From: Tubulanus polymorphus
Lineage: Eukaryota; Animalia; Nemertea
Assembly: GCF_964204645.1 (NCBI RefSeq)
Contig: NC_134027.1
Coordinates: forward strand, 558,001 to 622,000
Direction: 5' to 3'
Length of the DNA: 64,000 bases
The notes beneath the pieces were generated by a model. It did not search any database, was not told the origin of the DNA, and saw nothing but the letters and a program-made list of their open reading frames with translations. Shown here piece after piece: positions 1 to 62,463 of this stretch (within the stretch, counting starts at the first letter, position 1; each line of letters opens with the position of its first letter). Position numbers and translations under genes: made by a program.

Positions 1-354
1 AGGGTTCGTGTTGGCTTGAATCGGTGGGAGGCAATCAAACCCCGACAGGGATAACTCTTCGGCGGGGCGTGATCGCGTGAATAGCCCAAACTAAACCTTC
101 AGAGTTCACTGTACTACAGCATACAACATCTGATAACTTGCATAATAAAGCGCGGCGTGCATGAAAAGAATTGTATAAATGCGGGTAAGATTCCGTGCCG
201 GAGTGGAGGTATTCCATACACTGGTAGGTGAGTCGGAGCATAGACTGTTTGCCTGTCCCATAGACTGGTTGCCGGTCTCTACCTTCAGTTAGAGACCGGT
301 TGATCCCATCCTCCATTTTACATTTTCCATGCATGTCAAACATGTCAGTATCGA

Positions 355-382
355 GTTACTTCCGGGTTAAAATGGCGTCTCA
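355..382 (+). promoter_or_regulatory. ETS+YY1 composite motif typical of a Pol II start region
   Basis: TTACTTCCGGGTTAAAATGGCG. Retained as TTACTTCCTGGTTAAGATGGCG in the diverged paralogous block at ~40026 and present in copy B at ~44152. Confidence 0.4.
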
Positions 383-2635
383 TCGAATAAGCGAAACTAG
401 GAGTAATATCAAAATCGCGCTGGAATGATTGATTACAGTAAATCAGCTGATTATCTATGAATCATAAATGTAAACAGCAAACAAAAGGAAATTTAAAGAC
501 CGAAGAATAGGCATTAATTGCTGTAAGTATCGAAATAATCCGCTGATATTTACTCGGAATTCAAACTGACAACTGAATTGATACTTATTCATTTTGTAGG
601 TAAGAAAAAGGGCTCAGCTGCGATAGTCATTCTGAAGGAACTTGGCCGAAGGGGGACATGCTTTCTTTATAAACCGTATGTGAAATATATTCAGTGAATT
701 GTTTTGTTAATGATGTGAAAATCACTAAAGTCTGAATAAAGTTTACAATAGTTGAACTCCTTTGTCAGTGTTTTGCGAGATCAGATATTTGGATCCACTG
801 CAGCATCTTCACTTATATTCTCGATACAGACAATGAGTTGGGACAGACTTGGGTAAGACCAATAATTCAGATCATCTGGATATTCACAATATTTTCCTCT
901 CCTCATGGACCAACATGATTTTTGCTAGAAATTGAGTATAAAATCCATCAAGAAAAACTCTTTTTTACTGCCATTCTATATTTATTGTCCACTTCTAGTA
1001 CAAAATCTAATTCAATATAAAGACAGCCTGACAAGACGATACATATTTTGTGACATTGCAAATTGTGTGACAACAGAATGACTCTGATATCTCTAACATA
1101 ACTCGAATCACAAAGACCAAGTCTTGACCAGACAGTAGGTCTAAATCCATGCTCGCTCGTGTAGTTATTCATAAATTCCAGCTCTTTAAACCTCATCATC
1201 TCAGAATCAAGGAGTTTCATCGTTATTTGGAATCTAATTTCATGACGATTAGAGCTGGATTCGTTAATCTCTTTGATTCGTGATTGACGTTACTTTCTGA
1301 AATTGAATCAATACACATATCACCAACAATTAAACCTGGATTGACTTTTCAATTCATGTCCCATCCATTTTTCAAACTTACCATGATACAACGACAATTC
1401 ATTCTGTGCACGTTGAGCTCATTCAATTTAATATTGAGTTGTATCTCAGAAAATCTTCATCAGAACACACACAATGACCTACAAATAGACAATCAACAGA
1501 ATATTTATAAATAAGTATTCATTTACTGTTCACAAGTTTTAAAAGACATTGTCATTGAAGTGAAGTTACCTGTCGTATAATATTTTCACCACACTGTCAT
1601 TGGGGGTCACTGAAATTGACTGCTAATGTCCAGTGTCACATTCAGAATAATCAATCAATCATCTTAAGTGAACTGACAAATTGCCGGTGTCGTGGCCTCT
1701 GCTGCATGGCTGTTTCAGTTCAGTACGTCAGTCAGTGGAGATTGGTTTTTCCATCTCAAGTTCGTTGTTGTTGTCGATTGACGACAGTTCATTCGAGCAG
1801 GGTAGATTTTGACGGCGCTGTAACGGAGACATCTTGAATTGTATATCGATATTTTCGAAGCCACACGTAGTACAGGTGCCCGCAGAAAGGTTACCTGATA
1901 GTTTTGGTCGAGTTTCTTTCTTCATTGGTGTAAAAATCGACTTTTAAGCGGTCCATGGAACGTAAATCGAGACACTCTGGATGCGGCCATGTTACATTGT
2001 ACACGTGATGAAATACTGAAATCTGATTGGATCCGTACATTCCGTGGAAGATGGCGGACGGGTTAAACCTGTCCTATTCTGACTGCGAATGCAGGTGGCG
2101 CAGAATTGGACAGGCGACCAGTCTACCTGTCCCATAGACACCGGTAACCAGTCTAGCCACCTCACGATCAGTCTACATTGAAAAACCATTACTGAAATAT
2201 GGTTGACGGAAATATTCATTTTATATCAGATTCTGAAATATTTTCCCATATTGATTACAAAATTTTTTATTATCTTAATAAGATAAATCTGCAAAAGCTC
2301 AACAATTTGAATTAGTGAAAACCGATGTGCGAAGTCGTCAATTCAGTAGCCTGATAGAGCCCGGTAACCAGTCTAACTGTCAATGTTCATTGCGCGGGAA
2401 TGAACGGGCAACCAGTCTACGATGAAAAATCATTTCTGAAAAATTATGAACGGAGATATTCATTTTACTTTGAATTTTGAATTATCTTATAAAACTGACA
2501 GCCATATTAACCAAAGTATTAATAGTAAATCTGATAAAATCTAATACCGGTTTTAGAATAGGTGAAAACTGATTTATGTGATGCCGTCGGTTCAGAAGAC
2601 TGATCCGTAGAATCGTTCGCCACTTTCTTCCGGTC

Positions 2636-2790
2636 CACTTACTTCCGCGTTTGTGATTTGCATACAAGTAGTTTGAATGTTAAATGTATGAAGCCGCGTG
2701 TTGATTGGTTGAGGTCAGTGCGGTTTACTGAACGATGACCAGCTGTCAGCTGATCGAATCATTCGTTTCACAGACATTACGACGTAAGTA
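2636..2790 (+). promoter_or_regulatory. Candidate promoter and short non-coding first exon (copy B ~46432-46586)
   Basis: ETS-like ACTTCCG ~2641, octamer ATTTGCAT 2656-2663, reverse CCAAT (ATTGG) 2704-2708, Inr-like TCATTC 2759-2764, strong donor GAC|GTAAGT at 2784. The ATG exon begins with an acceptor at 5149, so an upstream exon is required. Confidence 0.5.
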
Positions 2791-3225
2791 TATTTTACAT
2801 CTTTGATCAAAAATTGTTGTGAAAAAACTCAAAACTAAGGCCTCTATAAATGATTGATTGACTTTAAATGATTACTTTAGCACAGCTCTTGTAGACAATG
2901 ATTAGGTGTCATAGTAGTTTAGCTCGAAAGTGCACATATAAGGTTAATTTTCATCCCTTATTTAGAGACTGAGGTATTGAGCGTCCATTTCAGCCCTTAA
3001 ACCATCATCAACCTACCTCAAACTGACTGTTTTTAATCCAGCAATAGTTACCTAACTATTGACTCATCATGGATTCGATTCAAAAACAATTTTTGATGAT
3101 CATAGTGATTCGAAACATTTGAATTTTTGAAAAACGCGAATGCTAAACGACGGATCCGGACTTCGATTGCGGCCCAATGGCAGAGTTGATTTTCTTATTT
3201 GGAATTTGATTATTTTTCTTATTTG

Positions 3226-4740
3226 GAGGTTAGATTGCTGTTTTTGGGTTAGATCGCTGTTTTTGTGTTAGATCGCTGTTTTTGGGTTAGATCACTGTTT
3301 TTGTGTTAGATCGCAGTTTTGTGTTAGATCGCTGTTTTAGGTTAGATCGCTGTTTTTAGGTTAGATCACAGTTTTTAGGTTACATTGCAGTATTTATGTT
3401 AGACCGCAGTTTTTTTTGTTAGATCGCAGTTTTTAAGTTAGATCGCTGTTTTGGGTTAGATCACAGTTTTTGTGTTAGATCGCTGTTTTTGTGTTAGATT
3501 GCTGTTTTGTGTTAGATCGCTGTTTTAGGTTAGATCACAGTTTTTAGGTTACATTGCAGTTTTTGGGTTAGACCGCAGTTTTTTTGTTAGATCGCAGTTT
3601 TTAAGTTAGATTGCTGTTTTGGGTTAGATCACAGTTTTTGTGTTAGATCGCTGTTTTTGGGTTAGATCACTGTTTTTGTGTTAGATAGCTGTTTTTAGGT
3701 TAGATTGCTGTTTTTGTGTTAGATCGCTGTTTTTGTGTTAGATCGCTGTTTTTGGGTTAGATCGCTGTTTTGGGTTAGATCACAGTTTTTGGGTTAGATC
3801 GCTGTTTTGGGTTAGATCACAGTTTTTGTGTTAGATCGCTGTTTTTGGGTTAAATTGCTGTTTTTGTGTTAGATCATTGTTTTTTGTGTTAGATCGCAGT
3901 TTTTAGGTTAGATCGCAGTTTTTGTGTTAGATCGCATTTTTGTGTTAGATCACTGGTTTTTTGTTAGATCGTAGTTTTTAGGTTAGATCGCTGTTTTGTG
4001 TTAGATCGCTGTATTTAGGTTAGATCGCAGTTTTTGTGTTAGATCACTGTTTTTGTGTAAGATATCAGTTTTTAGGTTAGATCCCAGTTTTTGAGTTAGA
4101 TCACCGTTTTGGGTTAGATCACAGTTTTTGTGTTCGATCGCAGTATTTAGGTTAAATTGCTGTTTTAAGGTTAGATCGCAGTTTTTTGTCTTAGATCGCA
4201 GTTTTTTGTTAGATTGCATTTTTTGGGTTAGACCACAGGTTTTAGGTTAGATCGCAGTTTTTAGGTTAGAACACTGTTTTTCTGTTAGATCGCAGTTTTT
4301 TGTTAGATCGCTGTTTTTAGGTTAGATCGCAGTTTTTGTGTTAGATCGCAGTTTTTAGGTTAGATCGCAATTTTTTGTGTAAGATCGCAGTTTTTTATGT
4401 CGCTGTTTTTGGGTTAGAAAGCTGTTTTTGTGTTAGATTGGTGTTTTTAGGTTAGATCACTATTTTTGTGTTAGATCGCTGTTTTTGTGTTAGATCGCTG
4501 TTTTTGGGTTAGATGGCTGTTTTTGAGTTAGATTGGTGTTTTTAGGTTAGATCACTATTTTTGTGTTAGATCGCTGTTTTTGTGTTAGATCGCTGTTTTT
4601 GGGTTAGATGGCTGTTTTTGTGTTAGATTGGTGTTTTTAGGTTAGATCACTATTTTTGTGTTAGATCGCTATTTTTGTGTTAGATCACTGTTTTTGGGTT
4701 AGCTCGCTGTTTTTGAGTTAGATCATGTTTTTGTGTTTTT
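3226..4740. repeat. 20-21-bp minisatellite GTTAGATCGCTGTTTTTG(G/T)
   Basis: About 70 visible tandem units. Confidence 0.97.
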
Positions 4741-4786
4741 GTCAATCATCATATCAAGATTTGCAATCCCAGTTGCCTTCACGTTT

Positions 4787-5081
4787 CATATAGAGAATTA
4801 GTGGATGTGGTGTCCCTGGACCCCTACATGCATCATATAGAGAATTAGTGGATGTGGTGTTCCTGGACCCCTACATGCATCATATAGAGAATTAGTGGAT
4901 GTGGTGTCCCTGGACCCCTACATGCACCATATAGAGAATTAGTGGATGTGGTGCTGGACCCCTACATGCATCATATAGAGAATTAGTGGATGTGGTGTCC
5001 CTGGACCCCTACATGCACCATATAGAGAATTAGTGGATGTGGTGTCCCTGGACCCCTACATGCACCATATAGAGAATTAGT
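4787..5081. repeat. 47-bp minisatellite, ~6 units
   Basis: Unit ATATAGAGAATTAGTGGATGTGGTGTCCCTGGACCCCTACATGCA(T/C)C. Confidence 0.97.
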
Positions 5082-5152
5082 TCACTGAACCAGAATAAGA
5101 CTGACTGATATATTTTCAAATGATTTAATATTTTTACTTGTTTTTCTAGAAT

Positions 5153-8100
5153 ATGCCAAAAGCTGTAAGAAAAACACGGGGCGCGGGCCCCTCACATTCG
5201 AGCCCGTATAATAAAGTAAGTACAAATTTACTGCTTCCATGCTTATTTATTCATCCCATACTTAGTATTTTGTACCCCTGGGTCCAGTTTCACAAAAAGG
5301 ATTAACGCCTAAATTGATTTAAGATAAACTGAATTAATGAAGAAATTAAATCGATTTAAGAGTTAAACCTGTTTGTGAAACTGGGCCCTGAATTGCATCT
5401 AGAATGAAAAAAAAGAAAAAAAAATATTGAAAATAACGTTGGTGAAATATTTCTGGATCTTTCTGGATTTCTGCTCAATGCATCGTTTAGTAAAATATCG
5501 ATATTCTCTAAAAGTAAAGATATAAGAATAAAAATATTGTATTGAATCGTGATTAGTTACTGTATGCGCTGCTAGTTGTTGCCCAACCCATAGCCTCATT
5601 TCTCTCCATTCTAAATTTGCATTGTTTAACATTGCCTGGTTGCTATGGAAACTATTTATTTAAGTTTCTTTGTGGTATCCATGGCAACAGTAACGTTTAG
5701 GTAGTGGCACCAATTATGGGTCCCAACGTTCCCATGGCGATACATGAGAACATTTATCCTATTTTTGACCTTCATGACGTAAGATGGTAGTGAGTCGATG
5801 ACGTCATTTTCGTCTCGCCACTAATGAAAAAAAAAAGAAATGAAAAAAAAGGAAAAAATCGTTAGAATTACGTTTATGAAATTTTTCTGGATCGGCTAAA
5901 TGTATTGTTCCATTAAATATCGACATTCTCTAAAATCATAGGCATCAATATCAAAATGATGATACAGCAGACTCCGCTTAACTCTGTTCTATTTGGACCA
6001 TTAATTAACCGAATACCGACTTTTTAAATTTTAGGATTTTAACTTTAAGGATCAGAAAATGTGTATGCAATATCAACCGGGTACCGAGTAGGGTGGCCGA
6101 GTCTACTGTAGTCTGCTGCCCCCTCGAATCCATTACCTTATTATCTCTCAATTTGCATTGTTTGACCTCGTCTGGTTGCTATGGAAACTATTAAGTTATA
6201 TCAGGAACGGTTTTTTCGTGGTAACCAGTGGCAACATTTAACAGGCGTGTCCGTCCTAGAGATAAACTGTCTGATTTCACAGCCACATCCGTCCTGGAGA
6301 TAAACTGTTAGATAAACTCTGATTTCGCGTCCGTCCTATTTCTTGTCATTGTATGAATATGTTTTCTCTTTTATAGAGAACTCAACAACAACAACAACAA
6401 CAGCAACAACAACAACAACAACAGCAGCAACAGCAACAAAAATTTGATATTTCTATGTCTGGGATTGACGTAAGTTATCGTAAACGCCTGTTTGAAGTCA
6501 TCATTCTTGAGCTTGAAACCGAAATTTATATATATAGAATATTAAACCCTGCTTCTGCTACTGACAGGTAATGTCCGTCATACATTACTGCATCGTCAAA
6601 TCTATACCAGGGTGCACCCAGCCTGATCGTTCGCATCATCACATGCAAAGGGCTGATTATTTTGGAACCCAGTTTTTATCAGCTGGAACATTCTGCACAT
6701 TCGACCATATTGATTGATAGCCCGTTATAGACGAGTGGAGAAAAACTGGAAAACCAGTTCAATGTTACCTCATGGTAAACATAAGGGAATTTCAATGAGT
6801 TTAACTCACATTTACAGAGTTTTAACGAGGTTAGACTGAATTAACCATTATTCCATCAATGGTGTGTTCTGTCCATCAAGGCTCCTCAGACGCACCGAGC
6901 AGTCAAATGCAGCAGTAGCGCGAGGGTCGGGTGTTCTCGTGTGGGCAGACGGTCCGAACCCCAAAACCATTTACTTACACTATACAAATCAGATCAGGTT
7001 TTTAACATTGTCTTTGATTGTATTTTCAGTTTCTGCCGACAACGCCGCCAAGCGGTACTTCTACGCCGGTAAGTGATAACTATTTTCTAATAAATCACGC
7101 TTATTTCAATTTGTAATTTGAAAATAGAGGGCAGTAGCTGTTTTGCATAAATTATGCTAATTAGGAATAAAATCAAATTCGATTAAGTCTCATCATCGTA
7201 GAAGTCATATATTAATGATGCTATCTCTACAGTTGTCATTTAAATTAAGTGTTATATTTACTACTTAATTTGCTTCATGACCCAAAAGCCTCTACTATAT
7301 AACTACTGGTTTTGTTCTAATCTTGGAGAATTTGCTGCAAAATTAACTTATCATTCGTTAATCAGTTTTTATCGAAAACCCGAATCAGTGATACATGCAT
7401 TCATGAATATCCATCTAATATTTTGTTTTATTTTATCTTTACAGGATTTATCACCGATACAGCACGTGGACGTAAGACATTAAACATTGATCTTGAATTT
7501 TAAGTTCAAACTAATTTATTTTTTATCTCACTCGGGACTATAGTTATTGCGTTCACTTTGCGTCCAGTTGTCTCGGCTAGTTTTTGATTTATCGTGTTGA
7601 TAATTGGTTTATATACTCAAACTACTCAAACTCAAAATATTGGCACAATTGGAATTAAGATGGCGGACTTGTATGACCATTTTTTTCCCCGGCAAAATCA
7701 GCGCTTTAGGATCAATTCTGTTGTTGTTATATTACATTGAAATCAGAGTTTAATATATATCAGTATAGAGCAGGTTTTTGCTCTAGTTATAAATAAAGTT
7801 ATAAATAATCTCATGACATGTTCTGTATATGTGTAGTGAGTTTCAATGTCTTTGGTTCCTTTTAAACCAGGGGGAGTTAAATTTGAAAATGTCAGATCGT
7901 CGAGCATTTCAGACCACTTCCAAAGTGGGTCCCTGCACCCCTAGTTATACCGTTAATATTTTAATAATACATTAATATTTTTATTTGATAGAATATATTG
8001 ATATACCATACATTGATATCGGTCTTGTAATTGGATCAACAACCATGAGATCAAAACACAGCAAATATGAACCTGCTGTGAATCAATAGATTTGTGATAA

Positions 8101-11100
8101 ATGTAATGAAATTGTTATTTTTCATATTGACTTTTTGAGTTAAGGGTCTGTTGTATAAGAGTATTTGGTCTCGCGTGTCAATGTATGATATCAATCTGTT
8201 GTATTTCCTCGTTCCAATGTTTAAAAGGTGTTCGTCACCTTATATTAATATCCTCCGTGTTTAAAAACCTGTGCGTATTACTTTTACCGTTAGATGGCGC
8301 CATAAGTGTGATATTTGATATATGGGATACCCGCAAAACCAGCTATTCCACCAGATGGCGCAACGAGTAGTAGGTCGTTCGTTGTCAAAATTAGTTCATT
8401 TTCGATGAACTTTGAACTGGTTTGAAGAAGAAATACTTTCATTCTTCTACTCTGATATCGGTTTAGTTTTCATTAATAATTGATTCATTTAAGAGAACAA
8501 TTCATTCAGATTTAATTGAAATGTACAAGAAAATCGAACGCAGACGACCAACTATTTACTAGCGACACCTGGTGGATCCTCGCCTGCCATAAGTGGAATC
8601 CTCGATTGCCACAGTAAGACTGCGGGTATCCCATTGTTTGGCGTGTGATAAAGTAAAGTTAGAAAACGAATGTTTAACTTTGTTGTGAAATGAAAGCGTT
8701 TTGGAGATTTTTAAACCGATCAAATCAATATTTTGATATTACGCTTGAAACCCTTCCCACTCATATTCTGCTTACTAAGTATATATTCTAGTTTCCGTGG
8801 AAATCATGGTGAGTGGCGCCATCTATACAGTGGAGTTAGCTTTATAAATCGAGTATGATTCGACAAGTGGCTCCATCTATTCCCTAATACTGAAGCGAGG
8901 TAACCAGCAGCGCCCTCATATACAGGAAATGAACGCCTATCAAGTTTAACAATGCACGGTGTATTGACCACAGCGACCGGTGATAATTATATCAATGTTG
9001 ATTAGCTATTGCCATAGACAGGTCCGTAGCGTTTGACTGGACCAGAACGGGGCCCCCTAACCAAAACAAATTTTGAAAACGTGCCCAGATAAATTGCCTC
9101 TGGGAGATTGATTAACGAGGTTTTGATTGAATGAACAAATTTTAATATTTGTAAGTTTAACATTTCTGTTTTTAATTTTTCTTTGTAAGGAACTGAATTT
9201 TCGAACCCCCCTGAACCGCTTCAAGCTACGTTCCTGATATAGTGCTAGCTATACCTGAATACTTTTCTCTTATTGAAATTGTCTAAAAAACCAGCACCTT
9301 GAACTAATGAACGTCATAATGAAAATGTTTAAAAATTCAACCGTTAACGAATTTGACTAATGTATCTTTTTTATTTTCATTTCTAGCGTCAGTTTGCCTC
9401 AGAGGCTGGGTCGCCGTCGCTTAATGTAAGTATCAGTGACGCCCTCAATCTCACATGCCTCACTTCCCTCCTAATGTAACCATTTTTATGAAATTCCTCA
9501 AGAAAATATATACTGATAATCTTAGAATACACGTTTTTGTACCCAGACCCCTTCATTCTACTGAACTACCGTGTAATCAGTACCTGTTGTGTTCATTTTC
9601 TGTTGCATTGATTTATATATTATTTCTATTTATAGTTGTCAAACAACAGCAGCAGCAGCAGCGCACCCCTCCCGCCGGAGACGCCTCCCGACCTGCAAGC
9701 AAGAAGTAAGTTCAGTCTTCAAATACAATTTCAACGCATTCAATTTTTTGTATGGCGTTAAAACGGTTAAAGTTGTGACTAGTTTTCATAACTCCGTGAC
9801 GTCAGGTGTGAGACAAAATACAATATCATATTTCCATCGAGTACCGGACCCTTTCCTATGTTTTTTGCCAATTTGGATTGAATGATCGCCAGCGGTTTTT
9901 CTATACGACCCGGCTCTGCTGTATTGCATTTAGCCATCCTTTTTCTTGGCGTTTTTTATAAGAAGGTGTTTGATTTTGTCTCTAAGGGATTTAGGAATTT
10001 AAGAGACACTTGTACTCTCTATGCAGTGAGTTTGTTCTGTTTTTGTTCCCTCGTGAATTTTATTTTTGTTTGAATCAAATCAAATCAGTGCATCTTTCTT
10101 GAATTGCGTGTATGTTATAATATTATGTAAGTTATAACGTTAAAATATCTGTTATATTTAAACCGAATATTTAATTGTTGTATTTTGAATGCGATAATGC
10201 CGCTCCCTGCTAAAGTCCAGCGTCGTCGTCGTGAGGGATGCGGTCATCTGTTCGGGCCCTGATTACGTTCTGTGTTCATCCTGTTTGGCTACATCGGGCG
10301 TTATATGAGTTAATCCTTCCTGGACTTGCGGATTGTGGTCGGAAGATCTATGGGTTCGGGCCGAGAAGTCCCAGAAACAGAAAGTACAGTTTCTGTCGAT
10401 GTACCGATTGATGTCTCTATTTCAGAAAGTAACAGCGGTCGCCAGCTGTACTAGCAAGGTTGGTTTCCCAACTCCATTCTCTGAGGAGGATCGCTGGTTC
10501 TCTAGTGCCGGTCAGTCACCAGTCAATCAATGGTTCAGCTGGCATCCCAGGGTACTGAACATCCAGTCCGGTCCGGTCCAGGCATCACTGGGAACTGTAC
10601 ATCCAGTCTGGTCCGGTCCAGGCATCACCGGGTACTGAACATCTGGTCCGGTCCGGCAGCTTTGAGCACCAGTCCATTCCAGACATCACTGGGTACTGAA
10701 CATCCAGTCCGGTCCGGTCCAGGCATCACCGGGTACTGAACATCCAGTCCGGTCCGGTCCAGGCATCACTGGGAACTGTACATCCAGTCCGGTCCGGTCC
10801 AGGCATCACTGGCAACTGTACATCCAGTCCGGTCCGGTCCAGGCATCACTGGGTACTGAACATCTGGTCCGGTCCGGCAGCTTCGAGCACCAGTCCATTC
10901 CAGGCATCACCTGGTACTGAACATCCAGTCCGGTCCGGTCCAGGCATCACTGGGAACTGTACATCCAGTCCGGTCCGGTCCAGGCATCACTGGGAACTGT
11001 ACATCCAGTCCGGTCCGGTCCAGGCATCACTGGGAACTGTACATCCAGTCTGGTCCGGTCCAGGCATCACCGGGTACTGAACATCCAGTCCCGTCCGGTC

Positions 11101-14100
11101 CAAGCATCACTGGGTACTGAACATCCAGTCTGGTCCGGTCCAGGCATCACTGGGTACTGAACATCCAGTCTGGTCTGGTCCAGGCATCACTGGGAACTGT
11201 ACATCCAGTCCGGTCCGGTCCAGGCATCATCAGGTACTGAACATCCGGTCTGGTCCGGTCCAGGCATCACCGGGAACTGAACATCTGGTCCGGTCCGGTC
11301 CAGGCATCACTGGGAACTGTACATCCAGTCTGGTCCGGTCCAGGCATCATCAGGTACTGAACATCCGGTCTGGTCCGGCCAAGGCATCATCAGGTACTGA
11401 ACATCCGGTCTGGTCCGGGCGGCCTGGCATCAATGTTTCGAATTTGAAACATAGTTATTATGGCTCTAGGTTTGGTAGAGGGCGCTATTCTACCAGACGC
11501 AGGAGTAAGGTCACCTTCACTGATATCGAGGATGGATCGAGAGATTATGATTGATTCTGTAGGAACCATCATCATTCATCAGTTCACGTCGAGGGACCGT
11601 TTAGGAAGTTCATGTCTTTCACGTCGAGGGACCGTTTAGGAAGTTCACGTCTTTCACGTCTAGGGACCGTTTAGGAAGTTCACGTCTTTCACGTCGAGGG
11701 ACCGTTTAGGAAGTTCACGTCTTTCACGTCGTGGGACCGTTTAGGAAGTTCACGTCTTTCACGTCGAGGGACCGTTTAGGAAGTTCACGTCTTTCACGTC
11801 GAGGGACCGTTTAGGAAGTTCATGTCTTTCACGTCGAGGGACCGTTTAGGAAGTTCATGTCTTTCACGTTGAGGGACCGTTTAGGAAGTTCACGTCTTTC
11901 ACGTCGAGGGACCGTTTAGGAAGTTCATCTCTTTCACGTCGAGGGACCGTTTAGGAAGTTCACGTCTTTCACGTCGAGGGACCGTTTAGGAAGTTCATGT
12001 CTTTCACGTCGAGGGACCCTTTAGGAAGTTTATGTCTTTCACATCGAGGGACCGTTTAGGAAGTCGTCACAATAATCGGAATTTCCGTGATTTCGAAAGT
12101 AAGATGTTATTGTCATTGTAAGCTACCGCAGTTACAGGTAAGCCTATTCTTGATTGCCCGGTTAGAAGTTCAGTTATTCGGAATTCTGACTCTGAATTTC
12201 TGAGGGGTAGCATCTGATTTCAACGAGGATCTAGTTCCTGCAGCAATAAGCTTCGGGTTGCCGCTCACAACGGAAGCTCGTAACACGGTTAGCCATGCCT
12301 GCAGGGGATATGCTATTTTTTACCCCTCAGCCATAGGACGCAAGGGGTAAAAAATCACTTATGTCCGGACGGGTGGGCTGTTTGTTTTTGACATATACAG
12401 GTCATCCAAGATGGCCGCCACAGCCATTGCAATGTGTTAAATAGCCATTTGAAGCTTGTTATCGCTCTACAGACTTAAGTTTTTCATTGATTTTCTTGTG
12501 ACTTGGTTTGTTTGTTTGAGGTGTGAGATGGATGAGCCCTATTATTTTTGACATATATAGGTCATCCAAGATGGCCGCCACGGTTGTTTTAATGTGTGAA
12601 ATAGCTATATTTTGGAGCTTGTTTTCCACTGTACAATCTACAGTTTTATACTGATTTTCTTATCACGTGCTATGTGGATTGAAGGCATAAGGATCGATGA
12701 ACTCTACTGTGTTTGATGTGTGTAGGCCACCACAGTTATATCAGTGTCTTGAATAGCCGATTTGGAGCTTGTTACTGCTCTAAGATGTAGAAGCTTAGAG
12801 GATTATAATTTTATTCATACTTGTACTGTGGTTTATTTATGGTGGTCAGAGGATGAGCCCTATTACAATTTTGCATTCTCTACTTGACTCACTGGTCAAG
12901 GGTTAATATCTAGTTTGTTAAATGTGGAGAAACTCGTGCTAAGTCCTCGGCAGGTCCCCATGTCGGTGAATCACCACCACCCCCACCCCCCGGACTTTGA
13001 TCTCAATATTTTGCGTGAATCGTCAGCAGTTTCAAGAGAATGGGCTCGATTAGGTGTGGAACAATTGGAATCCTCGATTGCCACAGTCGAACCTAGAGTA
13101 TTAAGAGCTCAATTAGGTTCGTCTTTGCGTCTCTTCTCCGGTTGGAGTGCTCCAGTTTTGACCAAACGGAGGAATATTCGAGAGGTGCAGATTCAAGTCA
13201 ACCATGCGGACTCCGTGAAGTACTGGTCCAGCTCCAGCTCCGACAGCTGAAGGTTCAGCTCCGGCTCCGACAGCTAAAGGTTCAGCTCTGGCTCCGGCAG
13301 CTCAAGGTCCGGCTCCGGCAGCTCAAGGTCCAGCTCTGGCTCCGGCCGCTCAAGGTTCAGCTCCGGCTCCAGCTCCGGCCGCTCAAGGTTCAGCCCGAAC
13401 TCACACAATGCCATCTCAAGCATCTTACTTTCTCAAGCGGCTACTGGTGGTTGGAGAACAAGTGCACAGCTCCAACATTCTCGTGCCCCTTCTGGTCAGA
13501 ATAATTCTAATTCATATCACTAAAAGGAGCTCTTCCTCTCGGAGAAACTCAAAATGAATGCTCGGGGCCAGTGAGAGGTTGTCTGCAGCAGGCAGCCACT
13601 GGTCCGTCGGTCCCGGGTCGTATCACGGAGGCTACTGTCTTCAATTCTGAACACCTCTCGACATGCGCCCGAAAGCAGATCAGGAGACACTAATCTCGTC
13701 AGCTCTCAAAGATCTGGCCAAAAAGAGAGCAATAGAACCAGTACGCGACGAAGCCACATCCGGCTGGTTTTCATGAAAATTTATGCTCCTGAAAACCACA
13801 GGGCGTCGATGGACTGTCATTCCTCGAGCGGCACCTGGATATCCCGAGGCTTCCGATGACTAAAACAGGGAGGTAATTCAAGGTCTCCGTCGAGGTTAAT
13901 GGGCGGCTGCATTGGACCTGAAAGATGCATATTTTCAGGTTCCTGTTCACCCGAAATCCTGTCAATTTTACAGAATAAAAGTTGAAAGGCTGCCAGTTCC
14001 AGTTCAGGTCTCTTCCAATCGGCCTCAGTACAGCCCACGCCCTGGGTATTTACCAGCTTGGGTCAAGTCCAGAAGGTACATTACAGTCCAGGGCTGGGTT

Positions 14101-17100
14101 TCATAGATATGGAAGAAAAATAATTCCAGGGAACATTTTGAAATTTGTCAGTTATAACCATGGTTTCTCATTGTTAGTATGGTGGTTGTTACCAAGATTG
14201 AGGATTTACCCCTAGGGATAACTTTGATACTCAGTCTATGAAACCGGGTCCTGGAGTATTTGTCTGTTGGTTTACCTCGACGACTGGTTACTAGTACCAA
14301 ACTCGACTATAGAATGTCAGGAGGCGAGGACCGCTGTCGTAGACTTAGTTCACCAGTTCCGCGTAAACTAAGTAAAATCTCACTTGATGCCATCCCAACA
14401 GTTCACATCTCCGGATCAGCACGGTCTTTCCGTCCATGGCTCGAGTAGCCAAACTTCAAGAAGCGTAGTTACCACAAACGAGAGGACAGCTAGTTATCGG
14501 TGACGCCTGTGGCTAAATGCAATACCGCAGTGCCAGGGATCGTATCTCTGGCTATCTACACATTCAGAGAATATTAACTAAAACCATAGGAAAGGGTCAA
14601 GCACTACTCCGAAAAAAAAACTAATTTTATTTCCAAAAAATTATGATATTATATGGATTGCATGCTGTGTGGAAGAAGTTTTCAAAATTATTTAGGAGCT
14701 TATTATAATTTGAATGCATGAATTGAGAGCAATTTGAAATGTATTGATATCCGAAAGTGTCTCCATTGACTTCACTCATTCACCTGATGAAGCTTCTATA
14801 CATTAGTACCCAAAGCTTGTGTGTCAAATAAACTAGTTACACGTCCTATAAAGTACTACTTGTCTCGTTATATATTCTAAACCCCAGTTAACAATTCCAG
14901 TAAGTCAGGTTTAGGGAATAGATATTTAAACCTTGAGATGATACCGATGTGATACAATTCCAGTAAGTCAGGTTTAGGGAATAGATATTTAAACCTTGAG
15001 ATGATACCGATGTGATACAATTCCAGTAAGTCAGGTTTAGGGAATAGATATTTAAACCTTGAGATGATACCGATGTGATACAATTCCAGTAAGTCAGGTT
15101 TAGGGAATAGATATTTAAACCTTGAGATGATACCGATGTGATACAATTCCAGTAAGTCAGGTTTAGGGAATAGATATTTAAACCTTCAGATGATACCGAT
15201 GTGATACAATTCCAGTAAGTCAGGTTTAGGGAATAGATATTTAAACCTTGAGATGATACCGATGTGATACAATTCCAGTAAGTCAGGTTTAGGGAATAGA
15301 TATTTAAACCTTCAGATGAAACCGATGTGATACAATTCCAGTAAGTCAAGTTTAGGGAATAGATATTTAAACCTTCAGATGATACCGATGTGATACAATT
15401 CCAGTAAGTCAGGTTTAGGGAATAGATATTTAAACCTTGAGATGATACCGATGTGATACAATTCCAGTAAGTCAGGTTTAGGGAATAGATATTTAAACCT
15501 TGAGATTAAACCGATGTGATACAATTCCAGTAAGTTAGGTTTAGGGAATAGATATTTAAACCTTGAGATGATACCGATGTAATACAATTCCAGTAAGTCA
15601 GGTTTATTAAGGAATAGATATTTAAACCTTGAGATTAAACCGATGTGATACAATTCCAGTAAGTCAGGTTTAGGGAATAGATATTTAAACCTTGAGATGA
15701 TACCGATGTGATACAATTCCAGTAAGTCAGGTTTAGGGAATAGATATTTAAACCTTGAGATTAAACCGATGTAATACAATTCCAGTAAGTCAGGTTTAGG
15801 GAATAGATATTTAAACCTTGAGATTAAACCGATGTGATACAATTCCAGTAAGTCAGGTTTAGGGAATAGATATTTAAACCTTGAGATTAAACCGATGTAA
15901 TACAATTCCAGTAAGTCAGGTTTAGGGAATAGATATTTAAACCTTGAGATGATACCGATGAATTTAGCAATTTTGAATGAATTAAACCAATATGAGATTT
16001 CGATCCTAAGAATATTGGAAGCTTGTGTTTAACGTTACTAAATAGTAATATTATATAAAGCTAGAAGGACACGAGGGTATCCATTTTTTTGCCCGATCGC
16101 AACGATTAAATTTGCCGGTGAATTTATACGCCCGATACGAGTGGGTACCGATCTATCTATAAATCGGCCGTCACGGTGATTTCGTCGCCCGCCAACATTA
16201 AACATGTTCTATATTTACGCCGGTGTTCGGGTCACTTGTTAATTCGCTCGTCTTGTCGGCAAGCTTAAAAAGATTTAGAAAAAACTACATATTCTTCTTC
16301 CTGAATAAACTGGATTCATCTGGGTTCAGTTTCATGAGACACAGTTCAAACTGCTCTTGAATTTGAGTTTGTAATTAATGTATGTGATTATAATGAATTG
16401 TATTTTTTGTTTTACAGCACTGATATTTAGATTGAGTCGTGCGTTCCGGCGGGAGGAGTTCGTACGCTTATTTTTACCGGAGTGTAAGTAGTTTAACTAT
16501 TTTCATACAATATCATTTAGTGTGACGTGTGTTACTGATCCAGGAATTTTTCCAAGAGGGGGTTCATAAAAATCCTGACTTAAATCTCTAATGATAGCCG
16601 GGGCCTATACGGCATATTGTTTGGCCAAACATAAGATCATATGGTACCGGTTTTTTGGCTTGTCTCGAGTAAGCATTTACATTCCTTCAAGAAAACGAAT
16701 TTTTAAAATTTTTGGTAGCTGATCAGCGGAGTCACGACCCCTGAAACCCTCCCTGGATCCGCGCCTGTGATATCTCCTCAAAATCTAATAAAAACATTCA
16801 ACAAATTAATGCTATAATGACGATATGTAGCCTGTTATATCTGTCTATTTGAATGCATTTGCATAAAGAAATAGTTGCGGAATTATCAACTGCAAATAAC
16901 AGTGTAACCCTAGTGGGTCTTAAGAGACGGCCAGAGCCTTTTTATAGGTTGTTATGGCTCACAACCTGACTTGAGTTAGCTGTACGGACCTGTCAGATTA
17001 GTTACTTCTAGAAGTTATGTTAGTCACATTTTCTGACTATATTCTGGAAAACAGTGGAAGCTTGTATCCACCCCTAGATTAGAACCAATCAGAATAGAAC

Positions 17101-19566
17101 CAATCAGAATAGAACCAATCAGAATAAAACCAATCAGAATAGAACCAATTAGAATAAAACCAATCAGAATAGAACCAATCAGAATAAAACCAATCAGAAT
17201 AAAACTAATCAGAATAGAACCAATCAGAATAGAACCAATCAGAATAGAACCAATCAGAATAAAACCAATCAGAATAGAACCAATCAGAATAAAACCAATC
17301 AGAATAAAACTAATCAGAATAGAACCAATCAGAATAAAACCAATCAGAATAAAACCAATCAGAATAAAAGCAATAAATAGCGTTTTTTTCTCGAGTAGTT
17401 GCCGAAGAAGCATAAAAATTTGATTCAATTTCATTCAGATTTAAACAAACAAATCGAATTTCATTTCATTCAGCGCAAACTTCAAATCTAATTAAAATTT
17501 TGTTCAGTATGAATAAGTTGCAAATCATTGAGAGGAAAAAATAATTAATTGTGTTACTTAAAAAAATCACAATTGTGCTGTGTTTATCAAAACAGGAGAC
17601 CACAGGACCTTTGGTCCTCTAGTATTCTTTTCCTAGTTATTCCAAAAACACTAAAACAGTCCAATCAGCGATGGCTGCCAGACCAACACGATTACATTGA
17701 AATCAAACTTAAGTAACATCAGGCGCCCCCTGTTGGAATAATATTCATAGCCGTAGCATCGAAACCATTCGACTTGTTGTTTAATGTATTTCTCTCTATT
17801 TTTATTTTACAGTTCTGCAAGTTTTAGAAGACTGCCCCTTTGAGGATTTGGTGGGGGAATTCAAAAGAAACTTGGTTCCCGATAGGATATTACCACCACC
17901 GGTTAATCCTATGTCGCCCGCTGCTGCCCCTCCCCCACGTCCATTAAATTCGCCTCAGCAGCGGCCTGTCAGACAGCCGCCCCCGGCCGCCACTCGTTCG
18001 TCAGACAGAGTCCGGGGACGGCTGTTTGAAGGAGATCTGACGGAGGTAAGAATCTTTATTTGTTTTCATATTTTATTCAGGATATCAGTTGAAGTTCAGC
18101 AAATAAATTACCAGACCTGTAAACAGAAGAGTAGTCATAAATTTCCATTTGCGGGTAAAACCCCATAGTCGAAAACCTTCGGTTATTGATCTATATCTGC
18201 TTAAGACCAATGGTTGTACACACGAGTGCGAAAACTTATCGCTCAAACTTTGATTGTATCCATGGTAACGCGTACAGTATACTATGCGTGACTTACCGTT
18301 TCCTATCACTGGAATACAATACTGTTTTAGACCATGAGCGCCATCTGCGGCGGTCATAACGGACTGAGTGGTGATTGGCTGAAATGCTCGTCTACCGTGG
18401 TGACGATTATTCGGTGTTACACGTGCAGCAGACACGTCTCTGAATATCTAACATTTGATTGTTGTAACTCATCGGGAAAAATATGTTTATGAGTCGATTT
18501 TTTGTCGAAATTTTGTTCGGCAGAAAATTGGCTGCGTACGTCAAGAAGGCGGCTGATATTTGTATCGTGTGACCCCTCGTCCCGGTAATATGCCGACCCA
18601 CGTACACCTGAGACCAGTTGCATAGTCAGAGCTTAGAATTAAGACCGTTTTAAGACCAACTTAGTTCTATAGCCAATCTAATAACTTAAGACCAGTCTTT
18701 AGATTTAAGACCACTTTTGGACTTAAGTCTTGACCATGGAATCGGCCCCAGATGCTTATTCCGCTGTATTGGATGCTGACGTGCTCGTGTCTTCCAGCAA
18801 TGTTGTTATTCACCAAAAATATCATGTTTTGTTCGAATAACACGATTCATCTGAGTCTGGGTTTAACGGATGACACGTTCAAACAGAACTACGAAATCAA
18901 TATCAGAAGTCCTTTTATATTGAAACGGTCCCAGAAGTCCCTGTTATAATGGGTACTTTTTCAAAAAAAGTAACGAGAACTCCGATGGCTTTCCGTATTC
19001 ACCGAACTATTTCTATGAGCGTCACTCGTAGATTTACCGAAACGCCACCTTGTGGCACGATATCCTAACTACGTATAGGTGTTTTATTTGCTGAATCGCT
19101 GGTTTCTCATTCTGATTTTTTATGTAGTGTTTAATTTTATACTAAACAAATTTTTCACTTTTTCTCTTTACAGACACGACCACCGCCAAAAAAAACTAGA
19201 ACAAAAAGGAAAAGAAAAGTTGCGGTCGTCGTGGCTCCGCAGGGAGGAGGAGCAAGAGTGGTCCCGGCGGATGGTGCGGCTGACGAAGGTAATCGGGAGG
19301 AAGGGGAGGGGATAAATAGGAAGCGGCCGAGGAGGGATGGTGGTGGGGCTGGGGATGGTGCGGGTCCTGCTCCTCCTGCTCCTCCATCCGTATCTCGGGC
19401 GGTCACTCGTTCACTCGCCAAAAAGCTGGCGAGTGAACGAGTGGCCCGAGAGGTAGAGGTGGTGGCCCGACATACGGATGGAATGTGGGAGGAGCGGCTT
19501 CGTTCGGGGACAATTCCGGATTTGTTAACTGATTTAAAAAATATTCTTTCAGTGAAGGGATATTAG
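5153..19566 (+). CDS. Spliced gene, copy A, ~340-aa putative nuclear protein of unknown family. Coding exons 5153-5215, 6377-6469, 7030-7068, 7445-7471, 9387-9425, 9636-9705, 16418-16483, 17813-18045, 19174-19566
   Basis: Every exon has a pyrimidine tract plus YAG acceptor, and all eight donors are GTAAG. Intron phases (0,0,0,0,0,1,1,0) join into one open frame: MPKAVRKTRGAGPSHSSPYNK/RTQ19KFDISMSGID/FLPTTPPSGTSTP/DLSPIQHVD/RQFASEAGSPSLN/LSNNSSSSSAPLPPETPPDLQAR/TLIFRLSRAFRREEFVRLFLPE/FLQVLEDCPFEDLVGEFKRNLVPDRILPPP...RVRGRLFEGDLTE/TRPPPKKTRTKRKRKVAVVVAPQGGG...SVKGY*. Differences from copy B preserve frame and are largely synonymous or conservative. Confidence 0.88.
5281..5387. mobile_element. 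MITE, PIF/Harbinger-like (copy B ~50435-50541)
   Basis: TIRs GGTCCAGTTTCACAAA / TTTGTGAAACTGGGCC, flanked by CTG on both sides (CWG target duplication). Confidence 0.75.
8322..8634. mobile_element. MITE-like inverted-repeat element
   Basis: ATGGGATACCCGCA ... TGCGGGTATCCCAT termini, plus inner inverted pair CCACCAGATGGCGC / GCGACACCTGGTGG. Confidence 0.65.
10541..11430. repeat. 40-bp minisatellite inside the DIRS gag region
   Basis: Unit GGCATCACTGGGAACTGTACATCCAGTCCGGTCCGGTCCA, ~21 units. Confidence 0.96.
11583..12064. repeat. 35-bp minisatellite, ~14 units (copy B 57765-58281)
   Basis: Unit TTCACGTCGAGGGACCGTTTAGGAAGTTCA(T/C)GTCT. Confidence 0.96.
12315..12915 (+). mobile_element. Non-autonomous interspersed repeat (Helentron/HINE-like) nested in the DIRS element
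   Basis: T-run start, short palindrome TTTTTACCCCT..AGGGGTAAAAA and internal ~170-bp degenerate repeats containing CAAGATGGCCGCC. Confidence 0.5.
13225..13395. repeat. ~27-bp repeat CAGCTCCGGCTCCGGCAGCTCAAGGTT (copy B expanded, 59448-59752)
   Basis: Visible tandem units at the end of the gag-like region. Confidence 0.9.
14091..14251. mobile_element. Harbinger-like MITE interrupting the RT
   Basis: Imperfect TIRs GGGCTGGGTTTCATAGA / TCTATGAAACCGGGTCC with CAG/CTG flanks. It lies between the LSTA and YLDD motifs. Confidence 0.6.
14892..15960. repeat. 63-bp minisatellite, ~17 units (copy B 61259-61884, ~10 units)
   Basis: Unit ACAATTCCAGTAAGTCAGGTTTAGGGAATAGATATTTAAACCTTGAGATGATACCGATGTGAT. 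Confidence 0.97.
17081..17369. repeat. 15-bp repeat A(G/A)AACCAATCAGAAT, ~19 units
   Basis: Visible tandem units. Only 2 units at the copy-B site (63664-63694). Confidence 0.96.
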
Positions 19567-25490: not shown

Positions 25491-25579
25491 TTCACATGTA
25501 GCAGATATAATGGAATTAAGTATTGAGAACCGCAACTTAACAATAAACCGGATCAACTTAATATAGTGCTGAGGACCAA

Positions 25580-42080: not shown

Positions 42081-45000
42081 GGTTTACTTCAGATAACGTA
42101 ATTTGGTTTAATCACAAGTCGTCAACATTATAATCAATGTAACTACAGTGACTACATTATTGTCTTTTTATTGAGAAATTTATGTTAATTTTTGATTTCT
42201 GGGATAAATCAAAATTCAAATGTTATCATTTTTTTGTATCAAAAATTGTAAAAAATTGAATAACTTGTGTGCTGTTGAAACATTCAGTTATGGAGAGTTT
42301 TTAGCTCAGAAAACTTTGAGCCTGTTTATACAAGTGTTGTAGCAAGTGTTGAACAATTCAAAGATCATGTTTTTTATACTTTGTCATGTTAGAAAATATT
42401 TTTTCTGGTATATTGATGTTTCTAAAAAAACATATGATTCAACTTTAAAAGGCCAACAAGCCTTCTAATAAAACTAGTTTGTCATATATATATATATATT
42501 ACTTGTCAAGTCATTGTCAAGTTTTTTAAAAAATATTTTGGTTTTCTCAGCTTTCTCTGGTGGAAATTTCTTCGTGGAATTCCTCTTCTATACAAGTTCC
42601 TCCTCAGACTGTTTTTATGCGAGAGTTTATAACAACCGGATCCTCAGAAAATGGTCGCAGTGCCAAGTCTTCGATTTAAGATCACCAGTCTTATCTGAGA
42701 CCATAAGTTCACTAGCAAGTTTCACTAGCGATTCCAACAGCTATAGGATGGAACAGTATTATTATATAGGTCACCACTGTGCAATTGAGCCCAGATCATC
42801 AGAAAAAGATAGTGAAGATGTGATGGGATTCATTGAAAATTTTGCATATATAATTAATTCATTGAACGACTTAATTTGTATAATCTATTTTTTGGGAATT
42901 TTCGAATTTTTCATCAATAACTAGTATATATTTCTTTTCAAGTTGTGAGCGATCTAGTTCTCTGTCGACCCATTGAAAATGAATCGACTCTGACCTGTAG
43001 AACTGGACCCAGGGAACTGAATCTCGCGTGCCACAGCAAGATACAGAGCTCTTCAATGTATTAACCGTTAGGTGCTGCCCCTAAACAAATCAATAGCGGT
43101 AAATCTGTGAACTAACTTATAGCTCGCTTGCCAGAGTAGAATCATAGCGAGCTGTCTAAAATCTTGAACCGTCTAGTGCTGCCCCTTAATCGATATGTAT
43201 CGGAAAAGTGAATTTATTACTCGCATGCCACAGTAGTTGTGTAGTTGGAACATCATGATAGACTCGTTTTTCTGTGCAGCTATAACGGGAGCTATTTCAG
43301 ATCTGACAATGAATATAAACTCAGTCACAGTTCGATAACAAACGCCGCTGGGTGGAATTGATGTAAACAAATAATCGTGTTGAAATTGAATTTAGTTTAA
43401 GATATATTTTCGTGGTAGTTTTTATTTTCAAGCTGTTTACGTTCACTTCAAATGATGAAACGATGAAACTATATTAAATACATCCCTGTTTTAGTGGGGA
43501 TTTTGAGTTTTGGTCCTTTCCGTATCTTCTAGAAACATCAAGTAGAAAGGCATTAACTGAACCCTATGTCTTTAACTTCAGGAGTCTATGGAGTTTTCGG
43601 ATGCCTCTTTTCCTCACTTCTTGCATTCGTCACCATTAGAAATCTGGACAAACTGAATTCAGTTCGACGAGGCCGAAGAACAGAAGACCAAAGAGTGATC
43701 TGCACTAGCCGCAGGGTTCGTGTTGGCTCGAATCGGTGGGAGGCAATCAAACCCCGACACGTGAAGATGTCATCCTCAAAAATAAGGATACCGGGACGCT
43801 TCTCTGGTTTACGATGATTAGTCTGCAGGGATAACTCTTCGGTGGGGCGTGATCGCGTGAATAGCCCAAACTAAACCTTCAGAGTTCACTGTACTACAGC
43901 ATACAACATCTGATAACTTGCATAATAAAGCGCGGCGTGCATGAAAAGAATTGTATAAATGCGGGCAAGATTCCGTGCCCTTGCAATCGAACGCCGGTGT
44001 GGAGGTATGCCATACACTGGTAGGTGAGTCGGAGCATAGACTGTTTGCCTGTCCCATAGACTGGTTGCCGGTCTCTACCTTCAGTTAGAGACCGGTTGAT
44101 CCCATCCTCCATTTTACATTTTCCATGCATGTCAAACATGTCAGTATCGAGTTACTTCCGGGTTAAAATGGCGTCTCATCGAATAAGCGAAACTAGGAGT
44201 AATATCAAAATCGCGCTGGAATGATTGATTACAGTAAATCAGCTGATTATCTATGAATCATAAATGTAAACAGCAAACAAAAGGAAATTTAAAGACCGAA
44301 GAATAGGCATTAATTGCTGTAAGTATCGAAATAATCCGCTGATATTTACTCGGAATTCAAACTGACAACTGAATTGATACTTATTCATTTTGTAGGTAAG
44401 AAAAAGGGCTCAGCCGCGATAGTCATTCTGAAGGAACTTGGCCGAAGGGGGACATGCTTTCTTTATAAACCGTATGTGAAATATATTCAGTGAATTGTTT
44501 TGTTAATGATGTGAAAATCACTAAAGTCTGAATAAAGTTTACAATAGTTGAACTCCTTTGTCAGTGTTTTGCGAGATCAGATATTTGGATCCACTGCAGC
44601 ATCTTCACTTATATTCTCGATACAGACAATGAGTTGGGACAGACTTGGGTAAGACCAATAATTCAGATCATCTGGATATTCACAATATTTTCCTCTCCTC
44701 ATGGACCAACATGATTTTTGCTAGAAATTGAGTATAAAATCCATCAAGAAAAACTCTTTTTTACTGCCATTCTATATTTATTGTCAACTTCTAGTACAAA
44801 ATCTAATTCAATATAAAGACAGCCTGACAAGACGATACATATTTTGTGACATTGCAAATTGTGTGACAACAGAATGACTCTGATATCTCTAACTTAACTC
44901 GAATCACAAAGACCAAGTCTTGACCAGACAGTAGGTCTAAATCCATGCTCGCTCGTGTAGTTATTCATAAATTCCAGCTCTTTAAACCTCATCATCTCAG

Positions 45001-47199
45001 AATCAAGGAGTTTCATCGTTATTTGGAATCTAATTTCATGACGATTAGAGCTGGATTCGTTAATCTCTTTGATTCGTGATTGACGTTACTTTCTGAAATT
45101 GAATCAATACACATATCACCAACAATTAAACCTGGATTGACTTTTCAATTCATGTCCCATCCATTTTTCAAACTTACCATGATACAACGACAATTCATTC
45201 TGTGCACGTTGAGCTCATTCAATTTAATATTGAGTTGTATCTCAGAAAATCTTCATCAGAACACACACAATGACCTACAAATAGACAATCAACAGAATAT
45301 TTATAAATAAGTATTCATTTACTGTTCACAAGTTTTAAAAGACATTGTCATTGAAGTGAAGTTACCTGTCGTATAATATTTTCACCACACTGTCATTGGG
45401 GGTCACTGAAATTGACTGCTAATGTCCAGTGTCACATTCAGAATAATCAATCAATCATCTTAAGTGAACTGACAAATTGCCGGTGTCGTGGCCTCTGCTG
45501 CATGGCTGTTTCAGTTCAGTACGTCAGTCAGTGGAGATTGGTTTTTCCATCTCAAGTTCGTTGTTGTTGTCGATTGACGACAGTTCCTTCGAGCAGGGTA
45601 GATTTTGACGGCGCTGTAACGGAGACATCTTGAATTGTATATCGATATTTTCGAAGCCACACGTAGTACAGGTGCCCGCAGAAAGGTTACCTGATAGTTT
45701 TGGTCGAGTTTCTTTCTTCATTGGTGTAAAAATCGACTTTTAAGCGGTCCATGGAACGTAAATCGAGACACTCTGGAGGCGGCCATGTTACATTGTTCAC
45801 GTGATGAAATACTGAAATCTGATTGGATCCGTACATTCCGTGGAAGATGGCGGACGGGTTAAACCTGTCCTATTCTGACTGCGAATGCAGGTGGCGCAGA
45901 ATTGGACAGGCGACCAGTCTACCTGTCCCATAGAGACCGGTAACCAGTCTAGCCACCTCACGATCAGTCTACATTGAAAAACCATTACTGAAATATGGTT
46001 GACGGAAATATTCATTTTATATCAGATTCTGAAATATTTTCCCATATTGATTACAAAATTTCTTATTATCTTAATAAGATAAATCTGCAAAAGCTCAACA
46101 ATTTGAATTAGTGAAAACCGATGTGCGAAGTCGTCAATTCAGTAGCCTGATAGAGCCCGGTAACCAGTCTAACTGTCAATGTTCATTGCGCGGGAATGAA
46201 CGGGCAACCAGTCTACGATGACAAATCATTTATGAAAAATTATGAACGGAGATATTCATTTTACTTTGAATTTTGAATTATCTTATAAAACTGACAGCCA
46301 TATTAACCAAAGTATTATTAGTAAATCTGATAAAATCTAATACCGGTTTTAGAATAGGTGAAAACTGATTTATGTGATGCCGTCGGTTCAGAAGACTGAT
46401 CCGTAGAATCGTTCGCCACTTTCTTCCGGTCCACTTACTTCCGCGTTTGTGATTTACATACAAGTAGTTTGAATGTTAAATGTATGAAGCCGCGTGTTGA
46501 TTGGTTGAGGTCAGTGCGGTTTACTGAACGATGACCAGCTGTCAGCTGATCGAATCATTCGTTTCACAGACATTACGACGTAAGTATATTTTACATCTTT
46601 GATCAAAAATTGTTGTGAAAAAACTCAAAACTAAGGCCTCTATAAATGATCGATTGACTTTAAATGATTACTTTAGCACAGCTCTTGTAGACAATGATTA
46701 GGTGTCATAGTAGTTTAGCTCGAAAGTGCACATATAAGGTTAATTTTCATCCGTTATTTAGAGACCGAGGTATTGAGCGTCCATTTCAGCCCTTAAACCA
46801 TCATCAACCTACCTCAAACTGACTGTTTTTAATCCAGCAATAGTTACCTAACTATTGACTCATCATGGATTCGATTCAAAAACAATTTTTGATGATCATA
46901 GTGATTCGAAACATTTGAATTTTTGAAAAACGCGAATGCTAAACGACGGATCCGGACTTCGATTGCGGCCCAATGGCAGAGTTGATTTTTTTATTTGGAA
47001 TTTTGAAGATATAAATCACTGAAATCAATTGGTTTTCTCAACCAAAATTGAAATTAAGAAGAATTTAGGATGGAGATGTTTGATTTTCATTTTGTCTAAA
47101 ATGCCGATTTAAAAATTAATTTAATTGAATCAAATTAATGAATTCATCATTTCATGATATTATAGATAATCAAAATGTGAATATGAAATAACCTTTTCA

Positions 47200-49000: not shown

Positions 49001-49044
49001 CAATCATCATGTCAAGATTTGCTATCCCAGTTGCCTTCACGTTT

Positions 49045-50235: not shown

Positions 50236-50306
50236 TCACTGAACCAGAATAAGACTGACTGATATATTTTCAAATGATTTAATATTTTTACTTGTTTTTC
50301 TAGAAG

Positions 50307-51552: not shown

Positions 51553-51583
<31 letters not shown>

Positions 51584-62406: not shown

Positions 62407-62463
62407 GTAAGTAGTTTAACTATTTTCATACAATATCATTTAGTGTGACGTGTGTTACTGATT

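Follow-up and report, generated by a model that had tools for sequence, protein, structure and literature searches.

Mostly silent divergence of an exon between gene copies with nearly identical introns in a predicted orphan gene of Tubulanus polymorphus

Two copies of a short predicted exon in the genome of the nemertean Tubulanus polymorphus differ at 14 of 66 nucleotides, mostly silently, while the non-coding DNA of the duplicated units that carry them is nearly identical. To judge from the sequence, the non-coding DNA of the two copies would trace back to a recent common ancestor and the exon patches to a much older one. The explanation that we favor, and to which we give slightly better than an even chance, is that gene conversion keeps the non-coding DNA of the family uniform, that exon lineages of great age survive alongside it and are mixed with one another in short tracts, and that the silent changes are old passengers.

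The window that we analyzed is a stretch of 64,000 nucleotides (NCBI RefSeq assembly GCF_964204645.1, contig NC_134027.1, positions 558,001 to 622,000); all positions below are those of the window and all features lie on the + strand. The window contains a duplicated block A (1..17630) and a block B in the same orientation (43713..64000) at an offset of 43.7-46.4 kb, the two units being about 44-46 kb long. In the unique non-coding DNA of 47-15959, with tandem repeats and exons left out, A and B differ at 60 of 11,070 aligned columns (0.54%). Minisatellites with periods of 15-265 vary in copy number between the units, the unique DNA of which is 99.5% identical. The same duplicated unit holds AG..GT exon-like units on the + strand at 23857-25492 (158 nt within a 257-265-bp tandem) and a looser series at 35289-37400, most of them closed in all three frames, and these possibly form a multi-exon non-coding transcript.

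The gene predicted from the sequence has nine AG..GT exons that splice to a single frame of 341 codons, and exon 7 is the 66-nt exon described above. Exon 1 (5150..5215, with the ATG at 5153) has 4 coding differences in 12 nt relative to its B counterpart at 50304-50369. Exon 2 (6377..6469; B 51534-51620) encodes polyQ and has 7 differences in its first 12 nt, exon 3 (7030..7068) has no substitutions although B (52180-52227) carries a 9-nt insertion, and the 27-nt exon 4 (7445..7471; B 52604-52630) has 3 differences in its first 4 nt. Exon 5 (9387..9425; B 54546-54584) has 2 adjacent differences and exon 6 (9636..9705; B 54795-54864) a single silent one. Exon 7 is followed by exon 8 (17813..18045), which is seen only in copy A, its B counterpart falling past the window end, and by exon 9 (19174..19566), which contains the stop codon and is basic and Gly/Pro-rich. 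The final 23 nt of exon 9, stop codon included, are repeated in inverted orientation at 19599-19621 (window 19544-19621), and the 3' end of the gene may derive from a MITE-like element. Within intron 6, 12900-14500 contains decayed reverse-transcriptase-like fragments, which may be DIRS-like by their motifs.

The predicted protein consists of a basic N-terminus, polyQ, Ser/Pro-rich microexons, a helical stretch and a basic Gly/Pro-rich tail. The helical stretch is a likely one of about 50 residues that spans exons 7 and 8, and exon 7 encodes the first half of this sole part of the protein that is predicted to be helical and is not of low complexity. Basic runs resemble nuclear localisation signals, and two short motifs, VTRS and RLRSG, appear similar to those with which viral proteins and IL-33 bind nucleosomes; the protein is likely nuclear and chromatin-associated. 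Single-exon queries gave nothing at the Pfam cut-offs (best E=0.044) and no homologue in homologue searches or in the ESM Atlas and JGI metagenome contigs, and a 36-aa query found no homologue among 1.84 billion representatives; these searches are weak, the probable folded part (exons 7+8) having been queried only as halves. No report of this gene was found in a literature coverage that largely excludes subscription papers.

Exon 7 is 66 nt long in both copies (A, 16418..16483; B, 62341..62406), each bounded by AG..GTAAGT with a phase-1 intron on either side, and in copy A the frame is open with exons 6 and 8. Direct comparison upholds the counts of the preliminary description: the 14 differences change ten codons, eight of them silently, including one split codon completed by exon 6, and the only amino-acid differences are I/A and L/I, both copies remaining in one open frame. 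Pathway counting assigns 9 of the differences to the 16.2 silent sites (pS 0.56) and 5 to the 49.8 replacement sites (pN 0.10); with the JC correction dS is ~1.0, dN is 0.11 and dN/dS is ~0.1. The exon 7 peptide is under purifying selection, and accelerated exon evolution of the toxin or defence type is rejected at these values. The excess of differences over the background has a binomial P of ~3e-18. As had been described, the differences fall into two clusters of 7, each spanning 16 nt (16419..16434, with the I/A change, and 16464..16479, with the L/I change), on either side of a 29-nt run that is identical in A and B (16435..16463). This clustering has P=0.001 under random placement of nucleotides and 0.005 under placement by codon. 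The GC content of the core is 66%, against 35% at the exon ends, and minor variants occur at 5 core positions in 7-16% of reads.

The near identity of the flanks, which the preliminary description had stressed, holds close to the exon but not farther out. The 53 nt directly downstream (16484..16536) have no A/B differences, and the 400 nt upstream (16018..16417) have 10 substitutions (10/399) and 1 indel, with just 1 substitution in the final 98 nt. Past +53 nt, the intron at 16537..17070 has 31 substitutions in 414 aligned nt (~7.5%) and large indels, and therefore exon 7 is embedded in a shoulder of older DNA; at 17390-17630 the divergence falls again, to 2/241. The downstream shoulder contains a MITE-like insertion with terminal inverted repeats that is common to A and B (16537-16770 and 62460-62995) and has different interiors in the two; it is missing from an older class of paralogs. 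The existence of older paralogs follows from contigs of X1 and X2 that belong to this class, whose introns can be aligned only in the vicinity of the exon and are without the insertion. Because the identical donor-side flank is partly retained even in this class (joints 16406-16494 and 16518-16777), it is likely constrained.

These shoulders, 2.5-10% around exon 7, and the partial retention of the donor flank are what would be expected if an ordinary tract of ~1.2 kb had been copied in from an old paralog, the near flanks being identical only through constraint on splice elements. At a local divergence of 10%, though, the probability of 10/17 changed silent sites (9/16 by the pathway count) is ~1e-6, and such a tract leaves the patches of exons 1, 2, 4 and 5 unexplained; we regard this reading as improbable.

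The patches in four other exons were absent from the preliminary description. Exons 1-6, with the polyQ tract excluded, differ at 18 of 280 coding columns, compared with 60 of 11,070 non-coding ones (P=4e-14), with a pS of 0.13, and 3 differences occur among the 600 positions of their 50-nt flanks. In all, exon-bounded patches occur in 5 of the 7 compared exons (1, 2, 4, 5 and 7), and those of exons 2, 4 and 7 begin at the first bases. Every cluster includes a non-synonymous change, mostly a conservative one. Among the 22 changed codons of exons 1-7, 9 differ at two or three positions, and such changes look like old divergence. The introns around exons 1, 2, 4 and 5 are no more diverged near the exon than away from it (9/1468 within 200 nt, 51/9602 farther, P=0.70), so that shoulders are found at exon 7 only (2.5% upstream, 7.5% downstream).

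Multi-hit codons and the many changed third letters would also fit a faster mutation of exons, by transcript-guided or error-prone repair, followed by purifying selection that filters the changes down to silent ones, and young trappin paralogs have a high dS that the available text of their description leaves unexplained (PMC2831891). Against this, the spectrum of the exon changes is that of the non-coding DNA (transitions 56% vs 55%; changes involving A 24/32 vs 35/60, P=0.17), long exon stretches are unaltered, and there is no nearby template for a template switch; we consider such a mutation bias quite improbable. Adenine-biased mutagenesis specifically is rejected as not significant (P=0.17), and template switching or an antisense source is rejected in the window, where neither cluster has a match of 12 nt or more elsewhere. 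A conserved RNA structure around the core was likewise rejected, as the A and B exons fold differently in a comparison made with no shuffle control.

The preliminary description had concluded that something acts on the mRNA sequence itself, and had proposed escape from small RNAs, in which selection against piRNA or siRNA recognition would drive silent recoding. High-copy, tandem, basic, low-complexity genes are frequent small-RNA targets, and the gene is of this kind. The excess is also confined to exons, and a site-specific chase, which may have taken place at one or two sites, could produce clumps of ~16 nt. Escape predicts dispersed mismatches, however, and those seen are clumped: 36% of the 26-nt coding windows are identical, against 7% under random placement (P<1/20,000), identical runs of 73, 54, 44, 39 and 29 nt are left in the compared coding sequence, and the opsins discussed below show the pattern without any such need. 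A search of the 64-kb window found neither an antisense copy of exon 7 nor a hairpin that could give rise to small RNAs against it. Small-RNA escape is thus a doubtful explanation, to which we assign a low probability.

The raw reads indicate a family of many copies. The dataset X6 consists of raw DNA reads from a different sample and study, of which we searched 1,934 million letters (12% of the run). The depth over exon 7 is ~150-175, which would correspond to 16-136 copies per haploid genome for assumed genome sizes of 0.2-1.5 Gb. We aligned 224 reads to B over exon 7 together with flanks of 23 and 26 nt. Of the 26 variant rows, 25 fell in the exon, at 22 positions, and a single one fell in the flanks; exon and flank each had one indel besides. 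The exon is variable at 22 of 66 positions, 12 of them third positions, and the flank at 1 of 49 (Fisher P=1e-5, the sites not being independent), a contrast inflated because copies with unalignable introns do not enter the flank count.

All 14 A letters are present among the reads aligned to B, in shares from 13/156 to 116/158 (8% to 73%) that are unphased and biased toward the reference used for alignment. With shares so uneven, the exon 7 versions are mosaics or represent many lineages, and third letters and loose ends in X6 reveal further versions. At the second-last Leu the commonest codon is CTA, from which the TTA of A and the CTT of B are each one step away; the double change TTA>CTT highlighted in the preliminary description thus resolves into single steps. 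Ala was found in three different silent contexts and Ile is therefore likely the derived state. The silent letters of B apparently also occur with Leu (shares 34-36% vs 22%, unphased, among 40 of 307 rows), which suggests that the silent lineages are not defined by L/I but cut across it.

The same reads bear on the possibility of an assembly or polishing artefact. All 14 letters of each version occur in raw reads from another sample and study, 43 of the 224 reads match B at 99% or better, and an X1 contig agrees with B at every position of 62318-62383, a stretch that takes in both intron and exon letters, X1 and X2 being possibly the assembly's own source. The chance that the letters themselves are an artefact is close to negligible, and the earlier claim of a real, exon-bounded and mostly silent excess is confirmed.

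Exon 7 appears to be present twice in some copies (window 62327, 62348, 62402). In 11 X6 reads, exon 8 letters (17873-17892) directly adjoin the final part of intron 6. In one X4 contig, two exon 7 versions follow each other head to tail, joined at the splice boundaries; the second of them lacks 1 nt, a deletion shared by 12 of 160 X6 reads. The similar counts suggest that these observations belong together.

In the explanation that we favor, gene conversion and recent amplification would overwrite the introns of the family copies, and old exon segments would be retained and reshuffled between copies in short tracts. Silent differences would be carried along as passengers rather than be the target, and protein-level selection would maintain several exon versions. 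Older paralogs with diverged introns would act as a reservoir, donating sequence where only the exons are still homologous, and the core would be either the most recently shared tract or a seed of pairing. Its high GC content and the AT-ending minor variants are compatible with GC-biased conversion without proving it. We infer conversion as the process, protein-level selection as the keeper and older paralogs as the reservoir, from unphased copies of one species. The route itself is established: as far as the accessible portions of the studies go, conversion overwrites neutral DNA, exon differences are kept and adjacent silent sites are carried along (PMC3213168, PMC3924837).

Our simulations were toy models with few runs. 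When codons were protected and tracts were short in a two-copy model, 13-68% of the runs of a setting ended with at least 10 exon differences and no more than 2 in the near flanks; without protection, 0 of 90 runs combined a diverged exon with clean flanks. Counting against the favored explanation, an identical core of at least 25 nt between clusters appeared in 0 of 400 two-copy runs, and several settings failed outright. The plain two-copy retention formula is rejected, since it yields no dense patches without shoulders, and with long tracts it predicts at least 39 intron differences where 11 are seen. Because the simulation lacks the core and the formula the shoulder-less patches, the two-copy version falls short, and short-tract shuffling among many copies is the likely addition. 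The conservative nature of the amino-acid differences and the absence of shoulders at exons 1, 2, 4 and 5 also count against the favored explanation.

The preliminary description had offered, as its other candidate, exon-limited conversion from the cDNA of an older paralog; conversion with older paralogs is a live explanation, and it may but need not have involved cDNA as the donor. If spliced transcripts of older paralogs served as repair templates, exon patches would be rewritten and introns spared, which would fit the patches at the starts of exons 2, 4 and 7 and the lack of an intronic shoulder at exons 1, 2, 4 and 5, and the identical core could seed pairing from which tracts extend to the exon ends. 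Contigs of X4 contain spliced-looking joins: exon-6-like letters are joined to exon 7, and one exon 7 version is joined to another at splice boundaries. These joins look like spliced RNA, the kind of the run being unrecorded. At exon 7, on the other hand, intronic shoulders are present, and none of the 6 X6 loose ends listed (of 9) carries exon 6 or exon 8 letters at the exon 7 boundary, a listing with a 3-read floor beneath which a single retrocopy could fall. Old genomic paralogs with exon-limited homology would moreover yield the same picture without RNA. We judge an RNA or cDNA donor unlikely. Slightly more doubtful still is its most specific form, in which spliced transcripts of old paralogs would act as templates in trans and rewrite the exons of young copies in the germline in tracts of 2-20 nt, leaving a shuffled library of old versions inside identical introns. 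The phrase 'cDNA-mediated gene conversion' did not occur in any of the 12 papers listed by a search of a literature from which subscription papers are largely absent.

Two further features of the X4 contigs concern intron 7. Its start (62407-62432) is deeply covered while the end of intron 6 is uncovered, and in one contig exon-6-like letters, exon 7 and intron 7 are contiguous. If X4 is RNA, there may be a short isoform that terminates at the in-frame stop lying shortly after the start of intron 7, and such an isoform could account for the conserved flank after exon 7.

The closest parallel to our favored explanation is with the L/M opsins. In gibbons, according to the portion of the study available, synonymous divergence exceeds intron divergence and dN is not above dS (PMC3213168). 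As in the primate L/M opsins described there, we have tandem paralogs with near-identical introns, here 0.54% diverged, an exon pS far above the intron value and a dN that is likewise not above dS (PMC3213168). Exon divergence, both silent and replacement, exceeds that of the introns in a sharp exon-bounded peak, like the opsins and the Teshima-Innan peak as far as the accessible text describes them (PMC3213168, PMC3924837), although the peak has shoulders at exon 7 and none at exons 1, 2, 4 and 5, and the toy model lacks the identical core. Since in the opsins synonymous divergence exceeds intron divergence under conversion, selection on the mRNA is not required, and the premise of the earlier conclusion, that synonymous sites should diverge about as fast as introns, fails where conversion homogenises introns (PMC3213168, in its accessible part). 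Unlike in the opsins, silent sites here come close to saturation, no function is known for the amino-acid changes, which are conservative, the patches measure 2-16 nt and the exon core is identical, and there are many copies and versions rather than two.

Other systems share some of these features. MHC genes have patchwork alleles in which old exon motifs are shuffled by short conversions among younger, homogenised introns, and our family resembles them in its many old exon motifs shuffled among copies with younger introns. MHC binding exons have a high dN, unlike the dN/dS of ~0.1 found here, where no ligand-binding role is known. Accelerated exon evolution is also a feature of conotoxins and of snake PLA2. 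In trappins, according to the available part of their description, the coding region of young paralogs evolves faster than the introns and the raised dS is called unexplained (PMC2831891). All three are like our gene in that the coding region outpaces the introns in young paralogs, but they are secreted with dN/dS near or above 1, and ours is basic, likely nuclear and has a conserved exon 7 peptide. In the accessible text on the Tigriopus paralogs GOT1p1 and GOT1p2, islands of divergence persist under conversion (PMC3728101). This invertebrate pair is like ours in its mosaic of high and low divergence, with rare transfers of diverged segments that give new combinations, and unlike ours in being an enzyme of known function (PMC3728101, same portion).

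On our best reading the family works like the opsin case, as an extreme form of a process already known, here nearly silent and affecting a many-copy orphan gene. What is distinctive is the near-saturated and near-silent exon, the shoulder-less microexon patches of 2-16 nt, the identical core and the orphan family of many versions. The ages that dS and intron divergence imply for such copies lie far apart, which is a warning for dating. With exons so short and copies so numerous, a phased assembly could directly separate conversion from DNA donors from conversion from RNA donors, and could also show why silent exon divergence stays high, a question that the trappin authors, in the accessible part of their paper, left open (PMC2831891). 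If true, the RNA-templated reading would be germline micro-conversion made visible in a genome.
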